Origin: Longimicrobiales bacterium
Lineage (GTDB): Bacteria; Gemmatimonadota; Gemmatimonadetes; Longimicrobiales; Gaopeijiaceae
DNA length: 64,000 bases
Assembly: GCA_965226375.1 (NCBI GenBank)
Contig: CBDDCX010000007.1
Span: 288,001-352,000 of the forward strand
Direction: 5' to 3'
In this document: positions 1 through 26,378 of the stretch, in pieces
Numbering within the stretch: the stretch's first letter is position 1
Layout of the letters: every line of letters begins with the position of its first letter
The notes under the pieces: generated by a model
What the model was told of the DNA's origin: nothing
Databases searched by the model: none
What the model saw: only the letters and a program-made list of their open reading frames with translations
Made by a program: the position numbers and the translations under genes

Positions 1-1470
1 GCCGGCGCCGCCGGCCATGACATACCGTTGTTGACCGTTCCCGTCTTCGAGACCGAGGACGGAGCGGCTCCGGTTCTTCCCGCGGATCTCGAGCAGGTCG
101 CCTCCGGGTCGTACCTGGCCGAAGACCTCAAGGGCAAGCTGGGTGAGTCCGTTGTCGCCTACCTGGGGGGGGATGAGGGCCCCCGTCGGCTTCTTTTGTT
201 GGGCGCCGGGAAAGCGGCGGATCTCGATGCCGAGTCGCTTCGACGGTGGGCCGGCCACGCGGTTCGAGCGGCGGAGTCGATCGGTGTAGCGGGGATCGGT
301 GTGTACCTGGGGGGGATGGAGAACGCCGGGTCGGAGCACGCCGGACAGGCGACCACGGAGGGGGCCGTCTTGGCGGCCTGGCGTTTCACGGAGATGAAGA
401 GCACCCCCGCCGGAGACGATCCACCCACCGAGGTGGCCGACTTCACGGTCATGGCCGAACCACAAGAGCTGGAAGAGGCGGGGCGGGGCGCAGAGGCCGG
501 GGCGATCATCGGCCGGGCGGCCAACTTCGCTCGCACGCTCCAGTCGCGACCGGGCAACGTTGCGACGCCGACCCACCTGGGCGACGAGGCCTCGAGAATG
601 GCCGCAGAGCGGGGGCTCGACGTCACCGTGATGGGGCCGGACGAGCTCCGGGGGGAACACATGCACGCTCTCCTCGCCGTGGCTCAGGGCTCGGACCAGG
701 AGCCGAGACTGATCGTCCTCCGACATGACGGTGGGGAAGAGGGCGCCGCTCCGTTGGTCCTGGTGGGGAAGGGGCTCACCTTCGACGCGGGCGGAATCTC
801 CATCAAACCCGCTTCGGGCATGGAGGACATGATCTTCGATATGTCCGGTGGAGCCGCGGTCATCGGCGCCATGCAGGCCGTGGCAGAGCTGAAGGTGCCG
901 CTGAACGTGGTGGGCATCGTGCCGTCGTCGGAAAACCTTCTCAACGGGAGCGCCCTCAAGCCCGGGGACATCATCGGATCCCGCGAGGGCAAGACGATCG
1001 AGGTCGTCAATACCGATGCGGAAGGTCGCCTGATCCTGGCCGACGCCCTCTCGTACGCGCAGAGCCTGGGGCCTGCCGCCATCGTCGACTGTGCCACGTT
1101 GACCGGTTCCGTGGTCATCGCGTTGGGGCATCACGCGGCCGCGGTCATAGGCACGGACGGTGATCTGGTGGACGAGCTCCGCGCGGCCGGAGACCAGGCC
1201 GGTGAGCGATGTTGGCCACTCCCGTTGTGGGACGAATATCGCCGGCAGATCGACAGCAAGGTGGCCGACATCGTTAATGTCGGTGGGCGCCCGGGAGGGA
1301 GTATCACGGCGGCCGCCTTTCTCAGTGAGTTCGTGGGGGACTGTACGTGGGCCCACCTGGACATCGCGGGCACCGCCTACGGAGAGGGCAAGCTCCCCTA
1401 TCAGCGCAAGGGGGCCGCGGGCTTCCCGACAAGGCTGCTCGTTCAATGGGTTCGGAGCCGGGCGGCGTGA
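1..1470 (+). CDS. pepA: Leucyl aminopeptidase (M17), 5' partial
   Basis: Motifs VGKGLTFDAGG, DMSGGA, NTDAEGRL and HLDIAG. The frame is open from base 1, so the true start lies upstream of the window. Confidence 0.95.
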   Translation, partial: AGAAGHDIPLLTVPVFETEDGAAPVLPADLEQVASGSYLAEDLKGKLGESVVAYLGGDEGPRRLLLLGAGKAADLDAESLRRWAGHAVRAAESIGVAGIGVYLGGMENAGSEHAGQATTEGAVLAAWRFTEMKSTPAGDDPPTEVADFTVMAEPQELEEAGRGAEAGAIIGRAANFARTLQSRPGNVATPTHLGDEASRMAAERGLDVTVMGPDELRGEHMHALLAVAQGSDQEPRLIVLRHDGGEEGAAPLVLVGKGLTFDAGGISIKPASGMEDMIFDMSGGAAVIGAMQAVAELKVPLNVVGIVPSSENLLNGSALKPGDIIGSREGKTIEVVNTDAEGRLILADALSYAQSLGPAAIVDCATLTGSVVIALGHHAAAVIGTDGDLVDELRAAGDQAGERCWPLPLWDEYRRQIDSKVADIVNVGGRPGGSITAAAFLSEFVGDCTWAHLDIAGTAYGEGKLPYQRKGAAGFPTRLLVQWVRSRAA

Positions 1471-3587
1471 CGCCAGCGTCACGCCGCGTATACGCGCCCC
1501 GGGCCCCGACGGCCGGGGCGCGGCGCGTTTGGTACCGCGCCGCGAGAGCGCGGCGCGTTTTGTACTTGGCTCTCGGGGTGGTACTCGCCGGAGTCTTGAT
1601 GCCTCGGATGGCGAGCGCGCAGGTGACCGACACCATCCCGGTGGCGGATACCCTACAGGTGGTGGACAGCCTACAGGTGGCGGACAGTCTGCTTGCCCCG
1701 CCCGACTCACTGCGGCCCGTGACTCCGGACTCGCTGCGACCGGTGCTGACTGAGGCAGAACAGCAGGCGCTCGACTCCCTCGCGGCGGTGGTCGACTGGC
1801 TGACCCAGCAGGTGGACACCTTCCCTCGCTTTCCCGCAGGCGTCGGGCCTTCATGGGAAGCCGCCGTGTGGAGTTGGGATCGTGCGGCGTTGAGGGCTAC
1901 CCGAGCCATAACGCTCGCCGAGTTGGTCAGTCACATTCCCGGAGTGATCCCGTTGAAAGGAGGTGACTACGGCACCCCGCAGTTCGTCACGGCGTTCGGC
2001 GTGGCTGGAGGACGCATCAGAGTTCTCTGGGACGGCTTCGAATGGCTCCCTCTGGAAGGCGGCGTGGCCGACCTCTCGCGCATAGGCCTAGGCGGGCTCG
2101 AGGAGGTGCGCGTGGAGCGTCATCCCGGCGAACTGCGCATCGAGATTCGCACCCTGGAACCCACGGACCCCGAGCCTGTGACGTCGTTGGATGTGGGCAC
2201 CGGTGACTTGGGCACCAACCTGCTCCGCGGTGTCCTTGCCCATCCCCACACGCTCGGTGGGTCCCTCACCTTCACGCTGGACCGGTTGGAGACCCGCGGT
2301 CCGGCCCTCGACGCCGCCGGTGCCTTGAGTGGAGTCGGGCTTAGATACGCCCTCGCCCGTAACAAGCGGGGCGGGGTGTCGGCGGAGTTCCGACGATTCG
2401 CCGCCAAGAGCTCGGTCGAGGACTTTTCGACCACGCTCACCCGTAATGACTGGAATGTGAGAGGAAGATGGCGCTTTACCGAGGACGTGATCGGTGAAGC
2501 GTTCGGGGGAGCTTCGTCGATCTCCGGTGATGCCGACGATCCCGTGTTCGGCGGTGTGGCCGTCAAACGCTCTCAACTCGGACTCCGTGCCGGCTACGAG
2601 AGGGGGGGAGTGTGGGGGAACGGGACTGCCCGGTTCTTGGACGGTGACGGTCTGCCGACCGGTACGTACGAGTTGGCGGTGGGCGGTTCCCACCCGCGGG
2701 CGCTTTCGGTCGATGGTTCCCTGCGTCTGGAGAGCTGGTCCGAGGAGAGCGCTTCATCCTGGAGGGCTCGTGTCACGACGGCACCGGTTCTGGGGGTGTC
2801 CCTATTCGCCTCCTATGAGGATGGCAGGAGCGGTGTGCCCTTCGTGGGCGATTTCGAGGAATACCTCCGATCTCTAGAGCCGCCGCCGGAGGATTCGCTG
2901 GGCGTGGAGCCCGACCCGGAGCCACAAGACAGCGTCCAGCCGCTCGAAGAGCCAGTGGCTCGGTTCACGGACCGGACCGGTATACGGGCCGGAGCGACCC
3001 TCGCCTGGCGGACGCTAAGCTTGTCTGGAGCCTGGCTCTCGATGGAGACCGATTCGCTCCGCCCCCTGGGCCTTCCCCTCGATCGGGGTGCGATAGCCCT
3101 TGAAGGCGAAGAGCGGACGGGCTACGAGCTGTCCGCCAGCCTACCCCTCCCGATCCCGGGCTTCCGGGTCGACGCGGCCGTACAGTCGTGGGACCAGGAG
3201 TTGCCCTACCTCCCCAAGCGAACCTGGGACGGGTCCATCACGTACCACCGTGTCTTCAAGGAATCGAGTAATCTCGAGCTTTGGGGGACGCTCGGAGTGA
3301 CCGGTCACGAGGGCATGCTCATCCCCATCGTCGATCCGGATCCGCCGCCGGACGATCCCTTGGACACACCTGGGGAAGATCCCGACGAGGAGCCGAGTGG
3401 ACCGATTCTGCTGCGTATGCCCCTCTACAGGGACGTATACGCGCTGATTCAGGTACGGGTCGTGACTGTGAACATCTTCGTGCGCGTCGAGAACGTCGCG
3501 GGCAAGGCAGACAACTTCGATTTTCCCGATCGTCAGCAGCCCCGCTTCCGCACCTTGTACGGGGTACGTTGGACCTTGAATAATTAG
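1467..3587 (+). CDS. Exported outer-membrane protein with TonB-dependent receptor plug-like N-terminal region
   Basis: GTG overlaps the pepA stop. Signal peptide ends ASAQ, followed by a plug-like segment (LAELVSHIPGV...VLWDGFE) and a beta-strand-rich C-terminal half ending YGVRWTLNN. Confidence 0.6.
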   Translation: MTPASRRVYAPRAPTAGARRVWYRAARARRVLYLALGVVLAGVLMPRMASAQVTDTIPVADTLQVVDSLQVADSLLAPPDSLRPVTPDSLRPVLTEAEQQALDSLAAVVDWLTQQVDTFPRFPAGVGPSWEAAVWSWDRAALRATRAITLAELVSHIPGVIPLKGGDYGTPQFVTAFGVAGGRIRVLWDGFEWLPLEGGVADLSRIGLGGLEEVRVERHPGELRIEIRTLEPTDPEPVTSLDVGTGDLGTNLLRGVLAHPHTLGGSLTFTLDRLETRGPALDAAGALSGVGLRYALARNKRGGVSAEFRRFAAKSSVEDFSTTLTRNDWNVRGRWRFTEDVIGEAFGGASSISGDADDPVFGGVAVKRSQLGLRAGYERGGVWGNGTARFLDGDGLPTGTYELAVGGSHPRALSVDGSLRLESWSEESASSWRARVTTAPVLGVSLFASYEDGRSGVPFVGDFEEYLRSLEPPPEDSLGVEPDPEPQDSVQPLEEPVARFTDRTGIRAGATLAWRTLSLSGAWLSMETDSLRPLGLPLDRGAIALEGEERTGYELSASLPLPIPGFRVDAAVQSWDQELPYLPKRTWDGSITYHRVFKESSNLELWGTLGVTGHEGMLIPIVDPDPPPDDPLDTPGEDPDEEPSGPILLRMPLYRDVYALIQVRVVTVNIFVRVENVAGKADNFDFPDRQQPRFRTLYGVRWTLNN

Positions 3588-3670
3588 ATGGATCCGGTCC
3601 ATGGCGGGCCTGCCGAGAGGGCTCGCCCGAGGTATGATCCTCTCTCACCGATTGATAGGGAAGTTCTGAC

Positions 3671-4564
3671 ATGATTCGAAGCATGACCGGGTTCGGCGAG
3701 GCCGAGGAGGTCACCGACGCCGGCTTGGTGCGTGTCGAGATGAAGACGGTGAACCATCGGTTCTTCAACGCGAGCCTGCGGACACCGCCCGGTTTCGACC
3801 GGCTAGAGGCAGAGATTCAGTCGTGGATGCGCTCTGTCATCGGGCGCGGCCATGTGACGTACAGCCTTGCCTTGGACCGGGGTCTCGCCGCCCAGGACCA
3901 GGAGCTTCCGGAACTCGATCTCGATAAGGCCACGCGGTACAAGGAGTTGCTCGAAACCCTCAGACATGATCTGGATCTCGAAGGGGCGGTCGAATTGTCG
4001 CACGTGGCCCGCTTCGGGGAGATCTTTCGGGCTCCGATTCCGTCGAGCCCCTCGGCCGATGTGGACGACGCCCTGGTCAAGAGGCTCACGGAACAGGCGG
4101 CCGCCGCGGTCGTCCGCATGCGCGAAACCGAGGGGGCCAGACTGCAGGCCGATCTCGAGGAGCGGCTGACCGCTATCCTCGCGCATCTGGCCGTCATAGA
4201 GCGACGCGCACCTGAGCGCCTGATCCAAGAACGGAATCGGCTTCGCGAGGCGGTCGCCGAGCTCATGGAGGGCCACCCCGCCGACGAGGACCGGCTGGCA
4301 CGAGAGATCGCCTACCTGGCTGAGAAGTGGGACATCAACGAAGAGCTCGTGCGTTTCCGATCCCACGTCGAACTCTTTGGTGAGACGCTGGCGAGCGATT
4401 CCGCGGAGCCGGTTGGCAAACGTCTGGGATTCGTGATCCAGGAGATGAACCGGGAGGCCAACACCATCGGGTCCAAGGCCAACGACTCGGAGATCAGTCA
4501 GGCGGCCGTGTCACTCAAGGAAGAGATCGAGCGTCTCCGCGAGCAGTTGGAGAACGTGGAGTGA
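3671..4564 (+). CDS. yicC: YicC/YloC family endoribonuclease
   Basis: MIRSMTGFG start, VNHRF, DINEELVR, GKRLGF..QEMNREANTIGSK and EQLENVE end; lies upstream of gmk. Confidence 0.95.
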   Translation: MIRSMTGFGEAEEVTDAGLVRVEMKTVNHRFFNASLRTPPGFDRLEAEIQSWMRSVIGRGHVTYSLALDRGLAAQDQELPELDLDKATRYKELLETLRHDLDLEGAVELSHVARFGEIFRAPIPSSPSADVDDALVKRLTEQAAAAVVRMRETEGARLQADLEERLTAILAHLAVIERRAPERLIQERNRLREAVAELMEGHPADEDRLAREIAYLAEKWDINEELVRFRSHVELFGETLASDSAEPVGKRLGFVIQEMNREANTIGSKANDSEISQAAVSLKEEIERLREQLENVE

Positions 4565-5229
4565 GCTCGGACGGCCTCCGTGCACCTGCGCTGGTCCTGT
4601 CGGCGCCGAGTGGGGCGGGCAAGACCTCGATCGCAAAGGCCCTGGTCAGAGGGTGGGACGACTCAGTGTTTTCGGTTTCCGCCACGACTCGCCCGGCCAG
4701 GGAGCACGAGACCGAGGGTGTGCACTACCACTTCCTGGAAGAGTCCGACTTCCAGGCGATGCTGGACGCCGGCCAACTGTTGGAGTGGGCCGAGGTGCAC
4801 GGCCACATGTACGGTACGCCGATAGCCAACCTCGATGCTGCGAGGCGGGAAGGGATGCACCTCATCTTGGACATCGACGTCCAGGGGGCCATGCAAGTCC
4901 GCACCCGTGTCTCTGACGCGTTGCTGGTCTTTGTGCTTCCGCCCTCGGCCGACGCACTGGTCCACCGTCTCAGAGGGCGGGGAACCGAGAACGACGAGAT
5001 CGTCGAGCGCCGGCTGCGAAACGCCCGGGGGGAGCTAGAGCGGGCTTTCGACTTCGACCATGTGGTGGTCAACGAGAATCTCGATCAGGCGGTGGCAGAA
5101 GTAAGGGCCATCTCGCTCGGCGAGGCGACTCCGGCCTCGGGGGCCATCGACTTATCGGGCACGATTCGCGAACTTCAAAGGCGAATCGACGAAATCCTCG
5201 CGGCGGGCTTCAACTCCGCTTCGAACTGA
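4561..5229 (+). CDS. gmk: Guanylate kinase
   Basis: SAPSGAGKT P-loop, SVSATTR, EWAEVHG..YGT and DIDVQGA. Confidence 0.96.
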   Translation: MSSDGLRAPALVLSAPSGAGKTSIAKALVRGWDDSVFSVSATTRPAREHETEGVHYHFLEESDFQAMLDAGQLLEWAEVHGHMYGTPIANLDAARREGMHLILDIDVQGAMQVRTRVSDALLVFVLPPSADALVHRLRGRGTENDEIVERRLRNARGELERAFDFDHVVVNENLDQAVAEVRAISLGEATPASGAIDLSGTIRELQRRIDEILAAGFNSASN

Positions 5230-5333
5230 GGTACGTTAAGTGCCTTTCCGGCTCGATTCGCGAGCTTCAAAGGCGAATCGACGAAATCCTCGCGGCGGGC
5301 TTCAACTCTGCCCCGAGATGAAGTACCCTAAGT
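5158..5333 (+). repeat. Imperfect direct repeat (~84 bp, 92-bp period) duplicating the gmk 3' end
   Basis: 5158-5241 vs 5250-5333; the core CGATTCGCGA(A/G)CTTCAAAGGCGAATCGACGAAATCCTCGCGGCGGGCTTCAACTC is shared. Confidence 0.95.
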
Positions 5334-5368
5334 CATTGTCATAATTGAACGTAAGAGGGAGTTGGCTG

Positions 5369-5584
5369 ATGCGCGTATTCACACCCGACGAGTCTGCTAA
5401 GCACACCCAGAGCAAGTATCTCGGCGTGCTCGTCGCAGCGAAGTACGCTCGGGAGCTCAACGCGTTGCCGAGGGAAACGCTCCCTCTCGGTGAGGAGAAG
5501 AAGCTCACCACCAAGTCGCTGGAGGCACTCACCTCCGGACAGATCGAGTTCCGCCTGGTAGGACGCCGGAAGCGGGAGGATTAA
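5369..5584 (+). CDS. rpoZ: RNA polymerase omega subunit
   Basis: SKYLGVLVAAKYAREL motif, position between gmk and coaBC, and a purine-rich RBS before ATG 5369. Confidence 0.88.
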   Translation: MRVFTPDESAKHTQSKYLGVLVAAKYARELNALPRETLPLGEEKKLTTKSLEALTSGQIEFRLVGRRKRED

Positions 5585-5633
5585 CCTCCACCGGCGGTAG
5601 CCCGGTCAGCGCTGCGAAAGAGAGCGAGGGACC

Positions 5634-6875
5634 TTGCCCGGAAGTGTATTGGGTCCGCGGCGTCCCTGGGATGGTCGTCGTGTCGTCCTGGGAGTCACAG
5701 GCGGGATCGCCGCCTACAAGGCGGTTCAGCTCGCCCGTGATCTCACCCGTCTCGGAGCGATCGTGGACGCGGTGCTCACTCGGGGTGCTCAGCAGTTCAT
5801 CCAAGCCCTCTCCTTCGAGGGAGTAACGGGCCGTCCGGCCCTGACCGAGCTCTTTTCCACGGAGGGTGCGGCGCTCCACATTCGGCTCGGGCAAGACGCG
5901 GACGTGGTGTGCGTGGCTCCGGCCACGGCCGATTTCCTGGCCCGGGCTGCCCAAGGCAGGGCGAACGATCTTCTCACGACCACCTTGTTGGCCACACGAG
6001 CCCCGGTCGTGCTCTGTCCCGCCATGAACGATCGTATGTTCGCGCATGCCCAGACGCGGGCGAACGTCGCTCACCTGCGCGACGCCCTGTCCTATCGGAT
6101 CGCCGGCCCGGCTGTGGGTCCCTTGGCGTTCGGCGAGGGTGAGGGACCGGGCAGAATGCTCGAGCCGGCGGACATCATCGAGGAGATCGGCCGGGCTCTG
6201 GCTCCGCCTTCGACACTCACGGGCAAGCGGGTTCTTGTCACGGCGGGTCCCACGCGAGAACCGATCGATCCGGTGCGTTACGTGGGGAATCGGTCCTCGG
6301 GTCGTATGGGCTTTGCCCTGGCGGCGGCCGCTTGGAGGCGAGGGGCTGAGGTCACGGTGGTATCCGGCCCGGTGGCACTCGGGGAACCACACGGGGTCGA
6401 GGTCATTCGCGTGGAGACGGCCCGGGAGATGTTCGATCAGGTGTCCGGCAGCTTGCCCGAAGTCGATGTATCGATCTTCGCGTCGGCCGTCTCCGACTTC
6501 CGCCCCGTGGATGCCGCGCAGGGCAAGCTCAAGAGAGCCGAAGTGGGTCCGGAGCTGGCTCTGCGCCTTATCGAGAACCCGGATGTGGCGGGAGAGACCC
6601 GGGAGCGGCGTAAAGAAGGATCCGTTGTGGTGGGATTCGCCCTGGAGACCGAGGCCTTGCTGGAGAACGGGCAGAAGAAGCTGGAGACCAAGGACCTCGA
6701 CCTCCTGGTTGCCAACGATGCCACCGAGAAGGGTGCCGGATTCGAGGTGGAGACCAATCGAGTGACGCTGCTCACCGACGGAGGGCCCAGCGAGGAGCTC
6801 CCGCTCATGAGCAAGAATGAGGTGGCCGAGATCATCCTTGACCGGGTCACGCGTCTCCTGGAGAGCCGCCCGTGA
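5634..6875 (+). CDS. coaBC: Phosphopantothenoylcysteine decarboxylase/ligase
   Basis: GVTGGIAAYK, PAMN, VTAGPTREPIDPVRY.GNRSSG.MG and GFALET. Confidence 0.96.
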   Translation: MPGSVLGPRRPWDGRRVVLGVTGGIAAYKAVQLARDLTRLGAIVDAVLTRGAQQFIQALSFEGVTGRPALTELFSTEGAALHIRLGQDADVVCVAPATADFLARAAQGRANDLLTTTLLATRAPVVLCPAMNDRMFAHAQTRANVAHLRDALSYRIAGPAVGPLAFGEGEGPGRMLEPADIIEEIGRALAPPSTLTGKRVLVTAGPTREPIDPVRYVGNRSSGRMGFALAAAAWRRGAEVTVVSGPVALGEPHGVEVIRVETAREMFDQVSGSLPEVDVSIFASAVSDFRPVDAAQGKLKRAEVGPELALRLIENPDVAGETRERRKEGSVVVGFALETEALLENGQKKLETKDLDLLVANDATEKGAGFEVETNRVTLLTDGGPSEELPLMSKNEVAEIILDRVTRLLESRP

Positions 6876-7681
6876 GCCGCAGCTCCCGGGAGATCGAACA
6901 GGTCGCGCGCTTCCTGGGGCAGAAGAAGGAGCTCGGTGAGCCCGAGCTGTACCTGGACGAGCTTTCCAGGGCCGAGGTCCTGGCGGCGACGGCCAAGGCG
7001 TTCGCCATGACCCGCTCGACCGGTACCGAGAGGGCGGCCTCCGCGCCGACGGGTACCGAAAGAGCGGCCGCCGCCTCGACCGAGCGACCCGCTACGGACA
7101 CCGTCGCGCCGCCACCCGACATTGGCGGCTCGGACTATCCGGCCCTCAAGGCCGCTGCCGAGGCGTGCCAACTCTGTAGGTTGGCGCGGACGAGAACCCA
7201 CGTGGTCTTCTCCGACGGAAATCCGAACGCCCGGCTCATGGTCGTCGGAGAGGCCCCAGGTGCCAACGAGGACAAGACCGGCCTTCCGTTCGTCGGGCAG
7301 GCGGGAAAACTTCTCGATCTTCTCTTGGCGTCGGTGGGCCTGTCCAGGCAGGATTCCGTGTACATCTGTAATGTGCTCAAGTGTCGCCCGCCGGGAAATC
7401 GAGATCCGATGGCCGACGAAATCGAGCTCTGTGCCCCCTACCTCAAGCGGCAGATTGCGCTGGTCGCGCCGGAGGTTATTCTGGCCGTGGGTACCTTCGC
7501 CGCTCAGCTCCTGACGGCGGCCAATCGACCACTTGGGAAGCTGCGAGGCTCCGTGTATAGCTACGAAGGCGTTCCCCTTGTGGTCACCTACCACCCGGCG
7601 GCGCTGCTTCGAAACTCGGGCTGGACGCGTTCGACTTGGGACGACCTCCAGCTCCTGCGACAAGTGATGGATCAGCCCTGA
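6872..7681 (+). CDS. Uracil-DNA glycosylase family 4
   Basis: CxxC, GEAPGANED, PFVGQAG, KCRPPGNR and TYHPAALLR; low-complexity repeated N-terminal linker. Confidence 0.93.
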   Translation: MSRSSREIEQVARFLGQKKELGEPELYLDELSRAEVLAATAKAFAMTRSTGTERAASAPTGTERAAAASTERPATDTVAPPPDIGGSDYPALKAAAEACQLCRLARTRTHVVFSDGNPNARLMVVGEAPGANEDKTGLPFVGQAGKLLDLLLASVGLSRQDSVYICNVLKCRPPGNRDPMADEIELCAPYLKRQIALVAPEVILAVGTFAAQLLTAANRPLGKLRGSVYSYEGVPLVVTYHPAALLRNSGWTRSTWDDLQLLRQVMDQP

Positions 7682-9090
7682 TGGAAACCGCATCGATTCC
7701 GGCGGCAGCACCCGAATACGACCGGCAGCCACCGTACTCTCTCGAGGCGGAGATCTCGGTACTGGGTGGCATGCTCATCGACAACGACGCCGTCGCCCGA
7801 GCCATCGAGGTGGTCGACGACTCCATGTTCTACCGCGAGGCCAACCGGCGTCTGTTCCGGTCCATGGCCCGCCTCTTCGAACGGGGTGGTGTGGTCGACG
7901 TCATCACGCTGAACGAGGAGCTCAAGAAAACCAACGAGCTCGAGTCGTCCGGCGGCGCCACCTATCTGGCGGAGTTGCTCGACGCCGTGCCCACCGCGGC
8001 CAACATCGAATACCACGCGCGCATCGTCCGGGAGAAGGCGCTCCTGAGGCGGCTCATCTCAGCGGCGTCCGACATCATCCGCGATGTCTACGACCAGGGT
8101 GAACGTGATGTGGAAGAGCTTCTGGACCATGCGGAGCAGCGGGTCTTCCGCGTAGCCGAGAGCCACGAACGCGAAGGTTTCGTCTGGATCAAGGAAATCC
8201 TGTGGCCCACCTTCGAGCATATCGAGAAGCTGCAGGAGTCCGCCGGCGGCATCACGGGCGTGCCTACCGGCTTCAAGGACCTGGACCGCATGACCACGGG
8301 CCTGCAAAAGGGTGACCTGATCATCGTTGCCGCCCGTCCGTCCATGGGGAAGACCTCCTGGGTCCTCAACGTGGCCCAGACCGCTGCGATCGAGCACAAC
8401 ACGACGGTCGCGATGTTCTCCCTGGAGATGTCCAAGGAGCAGCTCGTCCAGCGCTTCCTGTGTGCCGGGGGCCGAGTGGATGCACAGAGGTTACGCCAAG
8501 GAAAGATGAGCCCGGACGAATACCAGCGTCTTGCGGCGGCGGCGGGACACCTGAACACCGCTCCGCTTTGGATCGACGACTCCCCGGGCAGCACGGTCCT
8601 GGAAATGCGGGCCAAGGCCAGGCGGCTCAAGTCCGAAACGGATCTCGGCCTATTGATCATCGACTACATGCAGCTCATGTCGGGCGGCTACCGGACGGAG
8701 AGCCGTGTTCAGGAAGTGAGTGAGATCTCGCGCGGGCTGAAGGCTTTGGCCCGTGAGCTCGACGTGCCGGTCATTGCGCTCAGCCAGCTCAGCCGTGCTC
8801 CGGAGCAGCGGACCGACCGGCGGCCCCAACTTTCCGACCTGCGCGACTCGGGGTCCATCGAGCAGGATGCCGATCTGGTCATGTTTCTGTACCGGCCCGA
8901 ATACTATTTTGGCCCGGTGGACAAGGATGGTAACTCGATCGAGGGCAAGACGGAGCTGATCATGGCAAAACAGCGTAACGGCCCCACTGGGCTGGTGAAC
9001 CTCTTCTTCCACAAGGCCTACACGCGCTTCGACTCCGTGACCAGTGAGCAGCAGCAGGGCGAAGGCGCAGGTGGGTACGACGGTCCGTGA
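7681..9090 (+). CDS. dnaB: Replicative DNA helicase
   Basis: AARPSMGKT, IDYMQL, LSQLSR, LRDSGSIEQDAD and KQRNGP. Confidence 0.97.
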   Translation: METASIPAAAPEYDRQPPYSLEAEISVLGGMLIDNDAVARAIEVVDDSMFYREANRRLFRSMARLFERGGVVDVITLNEELKKTNELESSGGATYLAELLDAVPTAANIEYHARIVREKALLRRLISAASDIIRDVYDQGERDVEELLDHAEQRVFRVAESHEREGFVWIKEILWPTFEHIEKLQESAGGITGVPTGFKDLDRMTTGLQKGDLIIVAARPSMGKTSWVLNVAQTAAIEHNTTVAMFSLEMSKEQLVQRFLCAGGRVDAQRLRQGKMSPDEYQRLAAAAGHLNTAPLWIDDSPGSTVLEMRAKARRLKSETDLGLLIIDYMQLMSGGYRTESRVQEVSEISRGLKALARELDVPVIALSQLSRAPEQRTDRRPQLSDLRDSGSIEQDADLVMFLYRPEYYFGPVDKDGNSIEGKTELIMAKQRNGPTGLVNLFFHKAYTRFDSVTSEQQQGEGAGGYDGP

Positions 9091-9809
9091 GCGGGCCTCC
9101 AGCTGACCACGTGGAGGCGGAAAGGGCCCCGAGCGTCGGGGTCGTGGTGCCCGCGGCAGGTGTGTCTCAGCGCATGGGTGGGGCACGCAAGCAATTCCTG
9201 AGTCTGGCCGGTGAGCCGGTCCTCCTCAGGGCTGTTCGACCGTTCCTCGCTCAGTCGGGTGTGCGAGCCGTCGTCGTGGCGCTCCCCGCCGATCAGGTCG
9301 AGCCGGCCCCCTCGTGGCTCATCGACCGGGACGATCGCATCGCCGTCATCGAGGGTGGAGAGACCCGCCGAGATTCCGTATGGGCGGGCCTTCAAGCACT
9401 CCCCAAGGATCTCGATGTTGTCGTCGTCCATGATGGGGCCCGCCCCCTGGTGTCACCCGACGTGGTCGCCCGATGCATCGCCGTGGCCGGGGGCGGGGTG
9501 GGGGCCGTGGCCGGTTACCCGGCCGTGGACACGATGAAACATGTCGATGGCGCGGGGGGCGTGACCGGGACCCCCGAACGCTCGAGTCTTTGGCACGCGC
9601 AGACGCCCCAGGCCTTTCCCCGAGGCCAGATCCTGGAGGCCTATCGGCGGGCGGTAGAAGAGGATTGGCCGGCGACCGACGACGCCGGGCTGATCGAACG
9701 GATCGGAGGAGCGGTGATCATGGTGGAGTCGTCACCCACGAATCTGAAGATCACCTGCCGGGAAGACGTGGCCGTCGCCGAGTCGCTACTGGCTCGACGG
9801 GTTCCGTGA
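9087..9809 (+). CDS. ispD: 2-C-methyl-D-erythritol 4-phosphate cytidylyltransferase
   Basis: AAG.S.RMG..KQF, VHDGARP, AQTPQAF and N.KIT. Confidence 0.95.
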   Translation: MSGPPADHVEAERAPSVGVVVPAAGVSQRMGGARKQFLSLAGEPVLLRAVRPFLAQSGVRAVVVALPADQVEPAPSWLIDRDDRIAVIEGGETRRDSVWAGLQALPKDLDVVVVHDGARPLVSPDVVARCIAVAGGGVGAVAGYPAVDTMKHVDGAGGVTGTPERSSLWHAQTPQAFPRGQILEAYRRAVEEDWPATDDAGLIERIGGAVIMVESSPTNLKITCREDVAVAESLLARRVP

Positions 9810-21688: not shown

Positions 21689-23076
21689 GTGGCGCGCATC
21701 GAGGTTCCCATGCCGCAGATGGGTGAGTCCATCGCCGAAGGCACCGTATCGAAGTGGCTGAAGAACGTCGGCGACACGGTCGAACGAGACGAGCCCATCC
21801 TGGAGATCTCCACCGATAAGGTGGACGCCGAGATCCCTTCCCCGCAGTCGGGGACGCTTGTGGAGGTAAAGGTCCAGGAAGGGGAGACCGTGGAGGTGGG
21901 TACCGTCGTCGCGTTCATCGACACCGAGGGTGGTGCTCCGACCGTGGCTACACCGACCGAGGTGGCCGAGCCCATTCCCGTCGCGCCTCCCGTGGCTGAA
22001 GAGGTCCCGTCGCCGGTTGCCGAGTCCGCTTCTCCACCGACTGCTTCTGGTCCGTCCGAGGATGGAGATCCGCAATCGGCCGAGGACCGCTTGCGGACGA
22101 AGTCGACCCCGGTGGTCCGGCGCATCGCCGAGGAGCATGGGATTACCATCGGTGACGTGTCGGGGACGGGCCACGCCGGCCGGGTCACCAAGCAGGACAT
22201 TCTCAACTTCATAGAGGGAGGGGGACCAAAGGCACAGCCTGCGGTTGTTGCAGCCCCCGCCCCCGACGTGGCGCCGTCGGCTGCTCCTGTGTCACCGGCG
22301 CCATCGGTGGTGCCGTCCGATCTCTGGGCTGCCTTCTACGGTGAGGTCCAGCACCCCGAGTTTCCGGTCCCGAAGGGGACCAGGTCCTGCCGATGGATAA
22401 GATCCGTCGGCTCACGGCGGAACACATGGTCATGGCCAAGCGCGTGGCTCCGCATGTGCATTCGTTCATTGAGGTCGACTTCTCCCGCGTGGACAGCATC
22501 CGTGCGGCGAACAAGGCCAAGTGGGCGGAGCAGGGGGCCAGGGTCAGCTACACGGCCTTCGTGGCGTGGGCGTGTTCGCGACTGCTGCGCAGCTTTCCCA
22601 ACGTCAACGGCACCGTGTCGGGCAATAACATCATTCACCGAGGCAGCGTGAATATCGGGATGGCAGTGGATCTCGATCCCGGACTCATCGTCCCGGTCAT
22701 CCACGACACCGACGATCTGAGCCTGGTCGGCATCGGCAAGAAGATCATCGATCTGGCTGAACGCGCACGCTCTCGGCAGCTCAACCCGTCGGAGATTCAG
22801 GGTGCGACCTTCTCCATTACCAACCCGGGTGTCCTCGGCACGCTGGTCGGGTTGCCCGTCATCCCGAAAGGGACGTCGGCGATCCTTGGCACGGGGGCGA
22901 TCGCAAAGCGCACCGTGGTGGTGGAGGATCCCGCCACGGGCACCGACGCCATCGCCATCAGGAAGCGATCGCTGTTTTCCCTCGGGTACGATCACCGACT
23001 CGTGGATGGTGCCGACGCCGCGAGGTTCCTCTCGGGACTCAAAGCGCTCCTGGAGGACTTCCCCGAGGACGCGTAG
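21689..23076 (+). pseudogene. Dihydrolipoamide acyltransferase E2, frameshifted (real lesion or sequencing error)
   Basis: Lipoyl domain (EISTDKVD) and E3-binding domain (GTGHAGRVTKQDI) lie in one frame; the catalytic domain (YDHRLVDG) lies in another, with one base missing near 22368-22372. Confidence 0.88.
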
Positions 23077-23150
23077 TGTCACCGCGGCGAGGCCAAGGTG
23101 AGGTGCCCTCGACCGGACGGGACGCTTGGGTAAGAGGACGCTGACGGACG

Positions 23151-23864
23151 GTGTCGGATCCTTCATACCCGAGTGACTCGCTGGAGTTGGAGGTGCGGGA
23201 TCTTGGCCTCGTGCCGTACGGTGAGGCGCTGGAGCTCCAAGCGGATCTGGTAGCGCGTCGACGCGCCGGTGAGGTGCCGGACCAACTCCTCCTCCTGGAG
23301 CATCCCCACGTCATAACGCTGGGTACGGGATCGCGTCCCGAGCACGTTTTGGCCGACGCGGCTCGGCGGGATGCACTCGGGGTCGAGCTCTTCGAGGTAG
23401 GTAGGGGTGGGGACGTGACCTATCATGGTCCCGGCCAACTCGTCGGCTATCCCGTGCTGGATCTCAAGCCCGACCGTCGAGATCTGCACCGCTATCTGCG
23501 AGACCTGGAGGCCATGCTCATTGCGGCCATGGGGGAGTTCGGTGTCCGAGGGGAGACCGTACCGGGGCTCACGGGCGTTTGGGTGGAGAGCCGCAAAGTA
23601 GCGGCCATCGGTGTCCGTGTGTCGTCCGGCTGGATCACCTCCCATGGTTTCGCGCTCAACGTGGACAGCGACCTCACCTACTATGAGACGATCGTGCCGT
23701 GTGGCATCGCCGACCGTACGGTCACATCGCTTTCCAAGGAGGCCGGCCGCTCGATCCGGGTCGCCGAGGTCGCTCCTGTCGTTCGCGAGGCTTTCGCTGA
23801 TACGTTTCAGCGGCGAATTCGTGTTGGCGGGCCAACAAATGAGGCCTCTGAAGAGGGTGTCTGA
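23151..23864 (+). CDS. lipB: Octanoyltransferase
   Basis: LLEHPHVITLG, RGGDVTYHGPGQLVGYP, KVAAIG, HGFALN and IVPCG. Confidence 0.96.
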   Translation: MSDPSYPSDSLELEVRDLGLVPYGEALELQADLVARRRAGEVPDQLLLLEHPHVITLGTGSRPEHVLADAARRDALGVELFEVGRGGDVTYHGPGQLVGYPVLDLKPDRRDLHRYLRDLEAMLIAAMGEFGVRGETVPGLTGVWVESRKVAAIGVRVSSGWITSHGFALNVDSDLTYYETIVPCGIADRTVTSLSKEAGRSIRVAEVAPVVREAFADTFQRRIRVGGPTNEASEEGV

Positions 23865-24062
23865 GGTGACCTGGGGACTCCGTGGGTTTTTGAAATCCCG
23901 GCAGAAGATCTTGCCCGTCAATCCTTGGACAAGCCTCGAAGATCAATCTGTTTACGCTCGATTATGACCGGAGCAACGGCACTCCGGACTGTTTGTTAAC
24001 ATCGAATAGCATAACGAGTTACGGGATAATGCATGTTTTGTGCACGAGGTCGATCGAGAAGC

Positions 24063-24091
24063 TTGACGTTGGGCTGGAGCCTGCCCATACT
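24063..24091 (+). promoter_or_regulatory. Sigma70-type promoter of the putative ncRNA
   Basis: TTGACG-N17-CATACT; predicted start near G24098. Confidence 0.7.
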
Positions 24092-24097
24092 GTAAGT

Positions 24098-24444
24098 GCG
24101 TTTCCGATGTGGTACGCTGAATCGATGGCGTTGGTCATCCCTTCATGTGGATCGCGAGACGCGTTTCATCGGACGGGACGCCGTAGCGGTGGAAGCGAAC
24201 CGAGGGTTGGACCTCGGTGAGCCGGCAGAGGAGCCGTTGGTCTCTGCTGAACCCTCCGGAGCTCGGAGGACCTGAAGTTGCTGACCGCGCGACGACGGGA
24301 TAAGGGAAGCTGAGTCAGCTGCCCGACTGAAGGTGAGCCGCAAGGCGATCTGGAAGGAGGGCGGGTTTCCAAACAAGACGAGGTTTCTACCAACGAAATA
24401 GGGGCCCTCGGGGCGGCTTGCCGCACCGAGGGCTTCTTTTTTTT
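24098..24444 (+). ncRNA. Putative structured non-coding RNA (~345 nt), family unknown
   Basis: Bounded by a promoter and an intrinsic terminator, with no credible ORF and at least seven hairpins or stems. Confidence 0.6.
24404..24444 (+). terminator. Rho-independent terminator
   Basis: GCCCTCGG.GCGG-loop-CCGC.CCGAGGGC stem followed by TTCTTTTTTTT. Confidence 0.88.
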
Positions 24445-24502
24445 GTGGAGGCATTGGCCTGCGACGTGCTCTGCGGCCCCGAGGAACTCAACCGGCGGGG
24501 AG

Positions 24503-25078
24503 CTATCCTTCGGGCGGGGCGTGCTCGAAGTAATCGAGATAACGGCCGTACTTGTCACGCTGCTCATCCAGCCAGAGCTCGTAACGGCTTTCAACCAGCC
24601 CCCCGGAAGCCGTTCGCTCGGTGGCCGCTCGCGTGGCGAGATGGTCGGCGTACTCGTTCTGGACATGGCCTTCGTGACCGCGAACCCAGCTCCACCGCAC
24701 GTCGTGTTTGGCGGCGATGCGATCGAGCTCCTGCCAGAGTTCCAGGTTCCCGATCTCTCCCCCCTTCCGCTTCCATCCACGCGACTTCCACCCCTTCAGC
24801 CACTCGGTCATTCCCTTGACGAGATACTGGCTGTCCGACACGAACCGGGCTCTACACGGACGCTTTCGCAGCAAGGTCAGCGCCTCGATCGCGCTCCGAA
24901 GTGCCATACGGTTGTTGGTCGTGTCCGGCTCTGAGACCCAATAGTCCCGGCGTACCCACTCATCGGCCGTCCAGTGCTCGACCAGACCGCCGGCGCCTCC
25001 GGGGTTGGCTCTGTCTTGGAACTGGTTGCCGAGGCAGGACTCATCGGCGTAGATGAAAATCTCGGGCGCTTCCGTCAT
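24503..25078 (-). CDS. rnhA: Ribonuclease HI
   Basis: YADESCLGN..PGG, TTNNRMAL, SDSQY, WVRGH.GH..NE.AD.LA. Confidence 0.92.
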   Translation of the reverse strand: MTEAPEIFIYADESCLGNQFQDRANPGGAGGLVEHWTADEWVRRDYWVSEPDTTNNRMALRSAIEALTLLRKRPCRARFVSDSQYLVKGMTEWLKGWKSRGWKRKGGEIGNLELWQELDRIAAKHDVRWSWVRGHEGHVQNEYADHLATRAATERTASGGLVESRYELWLDEQRDKYGRYLDYFEHAPPEG

Positions 25079-25253
25079 TTCGTTCCGTCTTCTTCCCGAT
25101 CAGATGGCTCGGCGGGTAGCGAGCAAGGTAGGGCGGCGAGTGGGGGGGCGGAACCGGGTGACATCCAAGCTTGACTCGCTTTGCTGCGGTTCTAAATTCC
25201 GCCGGCTGTCGGATCTTTCTGACGGCACCACACATGACTCGGAAGTTCCCGAT

Positions 25254-26378
25254 TTGGCTGGCACTGACCCACGCGAACCTGCGTACCTTCTCCTTGAAGA
25301 CGGTCGGCGTTTCGACGGCTTTCGATTTGGCGCCGCAGGGCCTTCACTCGGTGAGGTGGTATTCAATACGTCCATGACCGGATACCAGGAGATCCTCACC
25401 GATCCGTCGTATTCCGGTCAGCATGTCGTCATGACGTATCCGCTGATCGGCAACTACGGAGTGAACGACGAGGATCGGGAGTCGGAGGGCCCTCAGGTTA
25501 CGGGCTTCGTGGTGCGTGAGCTTCCTCCGCAGCATTCCTCCTGGCGAGCGACCGAGTCGCTGGAGGAATACCTTACGGCCCATGACGTCGTGGGAATCGC
25601 TGAGATCGACACTCGGGCGCTCACTCGGCATATCCGTTCCGAGGGAGCCATGCGTGGCGCTATTGCTCCGGCCGAGACCGACCAGGCCACCCTATTGGAG
25701 AGTGTGCTGGCACACCCACGCATGGAGGGTCTCGATCTGGCGTGTGGTGTGTCCACCGACGAGCCGTACGTGGTGGAGGCCGTTGGCGAGGAGCGCTTCC
25801 ACGTTCTGGCCTACGACTTTGGCATCAAGGCGAACTCGCCAAAGCTCCTGTCTGAGGGCGGATGCCGTGTGACGGTCATCCCCGCAGAGACCTCGCTGGA
25901 GGACATTCTGGCGGTGCGTCCCGACGGGATGTTCATCTCCAACGGACCTGGAGACCCCTCGGCCGTCGAGAAGGCCGAGGCCGCTATCCTCGAACTCTCT
26001 GAGCGGGACGTCCCCGTCTTCGGGATCTGTCTGGGCCACCAGCTCATCTCTCGGGCCTTCGGTGCCAAGACCTATAAGCTCCCGTTCGGTCATCACGGAG
26101 GGAACCATCCGGTACGGAATCTCGATAGTGATACGGTGGAGATTACGTCTCAGAACCACGGATTCTCGGTGGCTCTGGGCCAGGGTGACGAGATTCCGGG
26201 AGCGCCGGAGCTACGACTCACCCACGTCAATCTCTACGACGGCACGGTGGAGGGCGTGGCTCATCGGGAACGCCCGGTCTTCGCGGTTCAGTACCATCCT
26301 GAAGCCGCCCCTGGGCCCCACGACAGCCGGTACCTCTTCGATCAGTTCATAACGCTCATGGAGTCACGGCGCCCGTAG
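25254..26378 (+). CDS. carA: Carbamoyl-phosphate synthase small subunit (start approximate)
   Basis: GEVVFNTSMTGYQE, SNGPGDP, GICLGHQ, QNHGF and QYHPEA. Confidence 0.96.
   Translation: MAGTDPREPAYLLLEDGRRFDGFRFGAAGPSLGEVVFNTSMTGYQEILTDPSYSGQHVVMTYPLIGNYGVNDEDRESEGPQVTGFVVRELPPQHSSWRATESLEEYLTAHDVVGIAEIDTRALTRHIRSEGAMRGAIAPAETDQATLLESVLAHPRMEGLDLACGVSTDEPYVVEAVGEERFHVLAYDFGIKANSPKLLSEGGCRVTVIPAETSLEDILAVRPDGMFISNGPGDPSAVEKAEAAILELSERDVPVFGICLGHQLISRAFGAKTYKLPFGHHGGNHPVRNLDSDTVEITSQNHGFSVALGQGDEIPGAPELRLTHVNLYDGTVEGVAHRERPVFAVQYHPEAAPGPHDSRYLFDQFITLMESRRP

Follow-up and report, generated by a model that had tools for sequence, protein, structure and literature searches.

What is encoded between lipB and rnhA in this Longimicrobiales genome, where no protein is apparent, how widely does it occur and what might it do? 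The window analyzed here is the whole stretch of 64,000 nucleotides from contig CBDDCX010000007.1 (assembly GCA_965226375.1, hereafter G000). An initial annotation, made from its letters, had proposed an orphan structured RNA gene of about 345 nt, with its own promoter and terminator, between these two genes. The features that define the locus are the following:

23151-23864, plus strand: lipB, the upstream neighbor
24063-24091, plus strand: sigma70-type promoter, with the -35 box TTGACG (24063-24068), a spacer of 17 nt (N17) and the -10 box CATACT (24086-24091)
24098-24444, plus strand: ncRNA gene, about 345-347 nt
24401-24444, plus strand: P9, an intrinsic-terminator hairpin (24401-24436) followed by U8 (24437-24444), read from the sequence
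24503-25078, minus strand: rnhA (RNase HI-like), the convergent downstream neighbor

The region 24098-24444 on the plus strand is a stand-alone ncRNA gene with its own promoter and terminator. TTGACG-N17-CATACT was the sole promoter-like site in 23700-24800 (1 versus 0.2±0.5 in shuffled sequences), and in a comparison of 18 homologues both boxes were conserved and the spacer was variable. The conserved block of these homologues opened with GC(G), equivalent to 24098, in agreement with the start that had been proposed near this position. The 5′ end was placed from promoter spacing and conservation, and the 3′ end from the U run. When a strict regular expression was used, the promoter was matched in 78 of 134 copies. 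The strong terminator annotated at 24404-24444 was recovered as P9 and its U8 tail, which had been overlooked by a simple terminator scan because the stem carries a mismatch. A candidate terminator was also found at 23968-23987, between lipB and the promoter, and the placement of the gene, with lipB on the plus strand and rnhA convergent, was confirmed. Only one copy was present in G000, and a model search of this genome gave no further paralogue above 19 bits. Upstream of lipB, the 2-oxoacid dehydrogenase E2 gene (21689-23076) is split into two overlapping frames, with the shift near 22360-22380; this is probably an assembly error.

The judgment that no credible ORF is present, made from one sequence, held across 136 copies. 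Coding constraint was not detected, the distance between the two strands of the pseudoknot PK2 (see below) falling 47/37/52 times in the three classes modulo 3, and no plus-strand reading frame was open in more than 63 of the copies. An Rfam search, the check that had been suggested for novelty, returned no family at the ncRNA locus, just two terminator-shaped matches with E values of 1.1 and 4, and nothing at gathering score over the whole window. Ten homologue loci searched at E≤10 gave nothing above noise over the ncRNA. The 6S RNA model (RF00013) matched neither at the locus nor in G000. The initial annotation had also set tmRNA, RNase P RNA and SRP RNA aside, correctly, and the true genes for all three lie elsewhere in G000: RNase P RNA at C6:63592-63977 (265.7 bits), tmRNA at C7:550055-550412 (182.5 bits) and SRP RNA at C8:1448647-1448744 (40 bits). 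No published description of the family was found in a search that covered literature other than subscription journals and supplementary motif lists. The proposal of a trans-acting, undescribed ncRNA thus gained support from the lack of an Rfam match, the covariation and the presence in RNA libraries described below, and the lack of a fixed downstream gene. That this is a real family of large orphan structured RNA, apparently undescribed, is in our judgment nearly certain.

Transcription was assessed in public sequencing runs. Of 24 runs listed, 23 contained the stretch, 12 of them recorded as RNA, and they came from 11 studies. Four RNA runs from four studies, chosen via the stretch itself, were aligned to 22700-25700 at a likeness of 85%. 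Across 24114-24416 the summed depth was 41-122, 6.8e4-3.8e5, 3.2e4-2.0e5 and 660-9400, and the bins over lipB, rnhA and carA never exceeded 61 in any of the four; these depths come from assembled contigs, which carry neither strand nor ends and are summed over related organisms, and all the runs are RNA. Contigs identical to the window covered 24115-24346 (X1) and 24175-24264, the latter at a depth of 25,000 (X2). The ncRNA appears to be a dominant Gemmatimonadota transcript. The metatranscriptome check that had been proposed was borne out in that the ncRNA region is present in RNA runs; a plus-strand transcript of ~345 nt is not readable from contigs.

BLAST detected matches in 19 of 61 genomes, G000 included, and the best loci, a chance match (L019) excepted, lay in the complete or partial lipB/rnhA/carA slot. 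Two covariance models were then used, R1 for the 5′ part of the ncRNA and R2 for the core (185 positions), on genome sets that are samples of related genomes, in which not found differs from absent. R1 extended the family to f3, with at most five copies per genome, often clustered. R2 recovered the ncRNA from 77 of 150 Longimicrobiales genomes, with up to five copies each (31/50 in f1, 41/49 in f3, 4/50 in f2, plus G000). In a set of 150 genomes from the whole phylum, a score of at least 69 bits was reached by 21 (9/16 in f1, 1/1 in f3, 9/31 in f5, 1/70 in f4, plus G000). Twelve further phylum genomes with matches below 28 bits (f4, f5 and f10) were discarded as noise, the loci L321, L324 and L322 being without the fold. 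The ncRNA was not found in f7 (0/16), f9 (0/16) or f13 (0/2), and no strong match was obtained in a deeper search of ten near-complete negative genomes or in two f5 genomes, both complete and from genus g90. When all GTDB species were scanned with a pattern, at least 115 loci were obtained, 56 of which were real by profile HMM; of the 43 real loci with a title, 41 were from Gemmatimonadota (Longimicrobiales, Longimicrobium, Gemmatimonadaceae, Gemmatimonas and Gemmatimonadales) and one from a Steroidobacteraceae MAG. Among the pattern matches listed from outside Gemmatimonadota, the best reached 22.9 bits, L172 excepted. The family thus spans three Longimicrobiales families and Gemmatimonadaceae, and it is multi-copy in one family.

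In Steroidobacteraceae, the ncRNA was found at 95 bits in two of 141 genomes, in the same context. On the contig are dprA, a LysM gene, def-fmt-rsmB and an NtrX that falls in a 90% cluster with other Steroidobacteraceae, and the Fmt encoded there is at most 47% like those of Gemmatimonadota. The contig is truly gammaproteobacterial, and horizontal transfer of the ncRNA into Steroidobacteraceae is likely, judging from these sequence comparisons. The suggestion that the ncRNA might be lineage-specific was right in that almost all copies are in Gemmatimonadota, and too narrow for a broad family with one probable transfer into Gammaproteobacteria. In both genomes the copy lies between dprA and the LysM gene (L495, G402:C59:1-11531, and L496), accompanied by ORFs whose translations read as pyridoxal-enzyme-like, kinase-like and methyltransferase-like; this block was likely acquired horizontally.

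At the lipB slot, the gap is 540-782 bases with the ncRNA versus 12-216 without it. In genus g53, 14 carriers had a mean genome size of 4.3 Mb versus 3.0 Mb for six non-carriers (hand-calculated). The ncRNA is accessory, since searches of many complete genomes did not find it and small genomes tend to lack it. The complete genome G007 (L050), without the ncRNA at the slot, has a nuclease-like ORF and a direct repeat of ~200 nt there. Copies of genus g53 (L309, L311, L316 and L319) have moved away from lipB, two of the g53 copies directly following an ORF that we take to resemble ribosomal protein L27. Some paralogues form pairs of the same or nearly the same sequence, separated by 1.6 kb or 110 kb (L095 in G060:C2; L099/L100 in G331:C1), which suggests recent duplication or gene conversion.

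The predicted fold of 24098-24444 had an energy of -162.5 kcal/mol (z -4.15), and none of 100 shuffled sequences was equally stable. The elements follow in the order P1, P2, P3, P4, P5, P6, P7 around P8, and P9 (the terminator). Those located in the window copy, in addition to P9, are, all on the plus strand:

24098-24162, plus strand: P1 domain, the 5′ arm (P1a 24098-24108/24151-24162; apical hairpin P1c 24124-24139)
24108-24113, plus strand: 5′ strand of PK4, UGUGGU, in the P1 internal loop, pairing with the P6 loop at 24284-24289
24164-24194, plus strand: P2, a peripheral hairpin with a GACG tetraloop
24195-24222, plus strand: P3, with loop UUGGA (24207-24211), the 5′ strand of PK1
24223-24249, plus strand: P4, whose loop includes CGUUGG (24235-24240), the 5′ strand of PK2
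24253-24269, plus strand: P5, a hairpin with a variable loop
24271-24299, plus strand: P6, with a tandem G.A internal loop and loop UGACCGC (24282-24288), the 3′ strand of PK4
24305-24388, plus strand: P7 (24305-24311/24382-24388), enclosing P8
24390-24395, plus strand: 3′ strand of PK2, CCAACG (CCAGCG or CCAGUG in most homologues)

The 3′ strand of PK1, UCCAA, lies at 24368-24372 in the P7-P8 region, and P8 of the window copy carries a lineage-specific insertion with a GCAA hairpin at 24337-24346. All seven stems of the initial annotation are present as letters, and five of them, GATGGC/GTCATC, ACCGAGG/CCTCGGT, GCAGAG/CTCTGC, CCTCCG/CGGAGG and the GCC-GCAA-GGC hairpin of the lineage-specific insertion, fit the comparative structure. 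The two others do not: the halves of TCCGATG/CATCGGA belong to P1 and P2, and in GGGAAGCTG/CAGCTGCCC the GGAAGC pairs long-range with 24383-24388 as P7. Nor did the recurring (T)GA(A/G)C linkers survive comparison, as the six occurrences are not conserved as a repeat; on visual inspection, two lie on either side of the tandem G.A loop of P3, and the rest vary. In place of a fold of serial stems, the comparison gave a multiply pseudoknotted one, whose long-range loop pairings had been missed.

Covariation in homologues, which had also been proposed as a check, supported this structure. Changes on both sides were observed in 42 of 73 pairs among 17 sequences (f1, with one from f3) and in 48 of 53 core pairs among 46 diverse cores. 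None of 500 shuffles gave counts as high, and pairing was 83-86% versus 33-47% with slid partners; these controls ignore relatedness, so that significance is overstated, and for this reason the diversity of letter codes is the stronger evidence. In 108 copies, 29 model positions were at least 90% conserved, chiefly in PK1, PK2, P4 and the base of P6. The P4 loop holds the most conserved motif of the family (consensus GAGGUCRCUGG), including an unpaired G and U beside PK2 that are 97-98% conserved, and an extra G-C pair between this loop and the base preceding PK2 shows weak covariation.

The periphery is more changeable. P1 varies among lineages, and both P1 and P2 are missing from the Longimicrobium copies, which begin at P3 directly behind the promoter; P1 and P2 are therefore dispensable. 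A P9 hairpin of at least nine pairs was present in 133 of 136 copies, with a tail of at least five U in just 64, so that P9 does not always look like a strong intrinsic terminator. In one f1 clade (L015, L016, L017, L020, L021, L072 and L073), a second hairpin and U run follow P9; there P9 is an arm of PK3 and a separate terminator lies downstream. In the g53 copies L309, L311, L316 and L319, the 5′ domain is enlarged to ~130 nt and consists of several helices, with GNRA loops capping its hairpins. These copies were considered as tandem fusions, and this was rejected, as the enlarged 5′ domain stands behind a single promoter. A pairing of CAUCCCUU, which flanks P1c, with the purine run after P6 was plausible in a few sequences and was dropped because the partner of the purine run, in P7, is the strand that precedes PK2.

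A compact pseudoknotted fold is predicted, with PK1 and PK2 as its core and PK3 and PK4 as optional pairings. PK1 is formed by the P3 loop and the strand that follows P8, with the codes UUGG/CCAA, UUCGG/CCGAA, UUGA/UCAA, UUAGG/CCUAA and GAUCAG/CUGAUC; at least four pairs were found in 135 of 136 copies by a free best-match search without a control, which is not proof. In PK2, the P4 loop pairs with the strand that follows P7. All six pairs were formed in 125 of 136 copies, and the codes were CGCUGG/CCAGCG, CACUGG/CCAGUG, CGUUGG/CCAACG (the window copy), UGCUGG/CCAGCA and CGCCGG/CCGGCG. When mutual information (MI/APC) was calculated on 108 copies aligned to a pseudoknot-free model, a PK2 pair ranked 12th and a PK1 pair 17th.

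In many homologues, the P8 loop pairs with the loop of the P9 terminator (PK3). It is unusual for the loop of a terminator to serve also as a tertiary contact. At least four Watson-Crick pairs were found in 77 of 136 copies versus 34±3.6 in shuffled pairings (maximum 46), with the codes CACG/CGUG (39), CACA/UGUG (16), GCAA/UUGC (4), AUCG/CGAU (2) and UACG/CGUA (1). Where P8 carried CACG, the P9 loop matched in 45 of 50 copies; otherwise CGUG was present in 7 of 86. PK4 joins a loop or bulge of P1 to the P6 loop. Here at least five Watson-Crick pairs were found in 73 of 111 copies versus 33±4 (maximum 46) in shuffled pairings, and six pairs in 37 of 78, with codes that include GCGGUC/GACCGC, GCGACC/GGUCGC, ACGAG/CUCGU, GUGGCUC/GAGCCAC and CGUAGC/GCUACG. 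An automatic parser was used to find the loops for the PK3 and PK4 counts, and it failed on some copies. All 19 copies without a PK4 partner in P1 (17 of the g53 type and two from Longimicrobium) carry a GNRA tetraloop on P6, and PK3 and PK4 are each lost in coordinated pairs of strands. In the window copy PK1, PK2 and PK4 are present, and the P8 insertion stands where PK3 would be. The f3 copy L087 has all four pairings, and the minimal Longimicrobium copy L186 has PK1, PK2 and PK3.

The neighborhood offered no partner. An all-against-all BLAST of ORFs at 94 loci recovered only the lipB/rnhA/carA/E2 block and genus-level synteny, and Pfam searches of 77 of 105 and 42 of 87 listed neighbor ORFs gave no shared family. 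Neighbors vary among loci, and just one arrangement, the lipB/rnhA/carA slot, is widespread. The neighborhood and gene searches gave no protein that shares the location or the distribution of the ncRNA.

The reading that we favor, with a confidence somewhat short of even, is that of an abundant, self-locked, trans-acting RNA that may serve as a stable scaffold or decoy platform for a protein, in the manner of raiA or OLE. P3, P4 and P7 would be tied into a core by PK1 and PK2, where the near-invariant bases cluster, and these bases of PK1 and PK2 would form the functional surface. PK3 and PK4 would act as optional struts, and PK3 may in addition hold the 3′ end inside the fold and delay degradation. 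A protein partner and a role in slow growth or stress are guesses from analogy. It is possible, though we lean against it, that the RNA represents a new large-RNA class in which the four loop pairings enclose a new catalytic or ligand-binding core or link several chains into a compact particle made of RNA only, and which maybe replaces 6S RNA.

One alternative, which we consider unlikely, is that the pairings link RNA copies into an RNA-only dimer, ring or nanocage like those of OLE, ROOL and GOLLD. Covariation is blind to whether a pairing is within or between molecules, and loop pairings of ROOL (B4) and GOLLD (B7) first seen by covariation proved to be intermolecular bridges (PMC12286853). 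Four loop pairings per chain, high abundance and tandem paralogues would suit such an assembly. Nevertheless, PK3 and PK4 are each lost in whole lineages and a GNRA loop replaces the PK4 loop, so that they look like struts of a single molecule, and, by an estimate from helix lengths, a single chain seems able to form all four pairings. A GACG loop is a possible self-kissing loop of the retroviral type. The P2 loop was considered in this role and rejected, as by eye some copies have GAUA, GAAA or GAAG in its place, which also speaks against assembly.

A ribozyme or small-ligand RNA, with the PK1/PK2 core as active site and PK3 and PK4 as braces, is unlikely to the same degree. Large ribozymes such as RNase P and group I introns combine an invariant core with an exchangeable periphery. 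The same organization is seen here, and the highly conserved unpaired G and U by PK2 and the weakly covarying extra G-C pair would fit an active site. However, no more than 29 positions are at least 90% conserved and base pairing accounts for most of them, no match to a known catalytic motif was obtained, no substrate gene lies nearby, and the RNA is dispensable in many genomes.

That the ncRNA binds RNA polymerase as a substitute for a lost 6S RNA, as Ms1 does in Actinobacteria, seems quite improbable, although several observations point this way. 6S RNA was scored in one of 130 genomes of the class versus 10 of 19 in other classes. In the zapA-rny slot, it was found in all three f9 and f13 genomes tested (63, 63 and 42 bits), families in which the ncRNA was not found (0/16 and 0/2), and in none of three ncRNA carriers tested; in f1, f3, f4 and f7 this slot (G000:C7:407143-407311, L335/L336 and L337-L365) either is short or lacks a rod shape. 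6S RNA may thus have been lost or relocated in most of the class Gemmatimonadetes. Size and abundance also resemble those of Ms1 (PMC9130861). On the other hand, the long rod with a central bubble that this source describes (PMC9130861) is not seen, and in f4 (ncRNA in 1/70) and f7 (0/16) mostly neither RNA was detected. The pattern amounts to perhaps one or two evolutionary events, and the 6S scan was insensitive, because it missed G162, whose 6S RNA scored 42 bits directly. In f7, the zapA-rny spacer (L361, L362, L360 and L365) is 230-270 nt long with several hairpins, is near-identical in two genomes of genus g85 and ends in a hairpin and U run just before rny; it is possibly another ncRNA or a leader.

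A selfish or mobile RNA element, or its relic, copying around the genome, is very improbable. Up to five copies in f3, some in tandem, the relocation in g53 and the probable transfer to Steroidobacteraceae would suit it; against it, two families carry a single copy at the same lipB slot, the 77 and 42 neighbor ORFs searched included no transposase, reverse transcriptase or nuclease, none of the 167 pattern matches listed on viral loci was real, and no plasmid or phage copy was matched by BLAST. A riboswitch or leader, a small-protein mRNA, a CsrA sponge, a Y RNA or a base-pairing sRNA is the least credible of all: the terminator-like 3′ hairpin, a same-strand downstream gene at some copies and 13 GGA triplets in the window copy (two of them ANGGA sites) are outweighed by a downstream gene that is the convergent rnhA here and diverse in either orientation elsewhere, as had been argued against a riboswitch, by the lack of frame constraint, by searches that did not find CsrA (PF02599) in G000 (90% complete), found Hfq in none of five genomes and Ro60/TROVE in one of 150 (G039, itself without a strong ncRNA match), and by conserved loop bases that are consumed by internal pairings.

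Few large structured bacterial RNAs are known, and those recently solved, raiA, OLE, ROOL and GOLLD, proved to be new architectures. The ncRNA has a core of ~185 nt and natural minimal forms that begin at P3; its small core, natural strut variants and clear codes make it ready for cryo-EM, probing and pull-down. It is also an apparently dominant transcript of a phylum widespread in soil, sediment and sponges, whose RNA biology is little studied, and it occurs in lineages from which 6S RNA is seemingly lost.

Among known systems, type A RNase P RNA, tmRNA and SRP RNA resemble the ncRNA in having pseudoknots and, for RNase P RNA and tmRNA, a similar length. It differs from them in its patchy distribution and has none of their motifs. 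With Ms1 and 6S RNA it shares a length of ~300 nt, abundance, a stand-alone gene and occurrence in lineages without detectable 6S RNA. Ms1 is ~300 nt long, and 6S and Ms1 are defined by a long rod with a central bubble (PMC9130861); the ncRNA has no such promoter-mimic rod and is instead multibranched and locked by pseudoknots.

OLE, ROOL and GOLLD also have an ornate covarying structure with loop-loop pairings (PMC12286853), and the ncRNA is about half the size of GOLLD (833 nt in the same source) or less. In contrast to these three, it has no Rfam match, no adjacent partner gene and no phage-contig matches to our own patterns. OLE and ROOL are about twice its size or more.

A further comparison is with raiA (RF03072). 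It is an abundant, single-locus RNA with two pseudoknots, found in RNP complexes (PMC12968392), and like the ncRNA it is stand-alone, of the 200-250 nt class, and built on a compact two-pseudoknot core with optional peripheral stems. In four RNA runs depth was confined to the ncRNA, in contigs that give neither strand nor true level. RF03072 matched neither at the locus (E≤5) nor at ten homologue loci (E≤10), and it was found in none of five carrier genomes, where the control was likewise silent. In raiA a closing P1 brings the two ends together and a single linker supplies both pseudoknots (PMC12968392), whereas P1 of the ncRNA is a dispensable hairpin local to the 5′ end and missing in Longimicrobium, and its pseudoknots come from four loops, one of which is the loop of the terminator. 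Finally, the ncRNA differs from raiA in belonging to other phyla and in being multi-copy.
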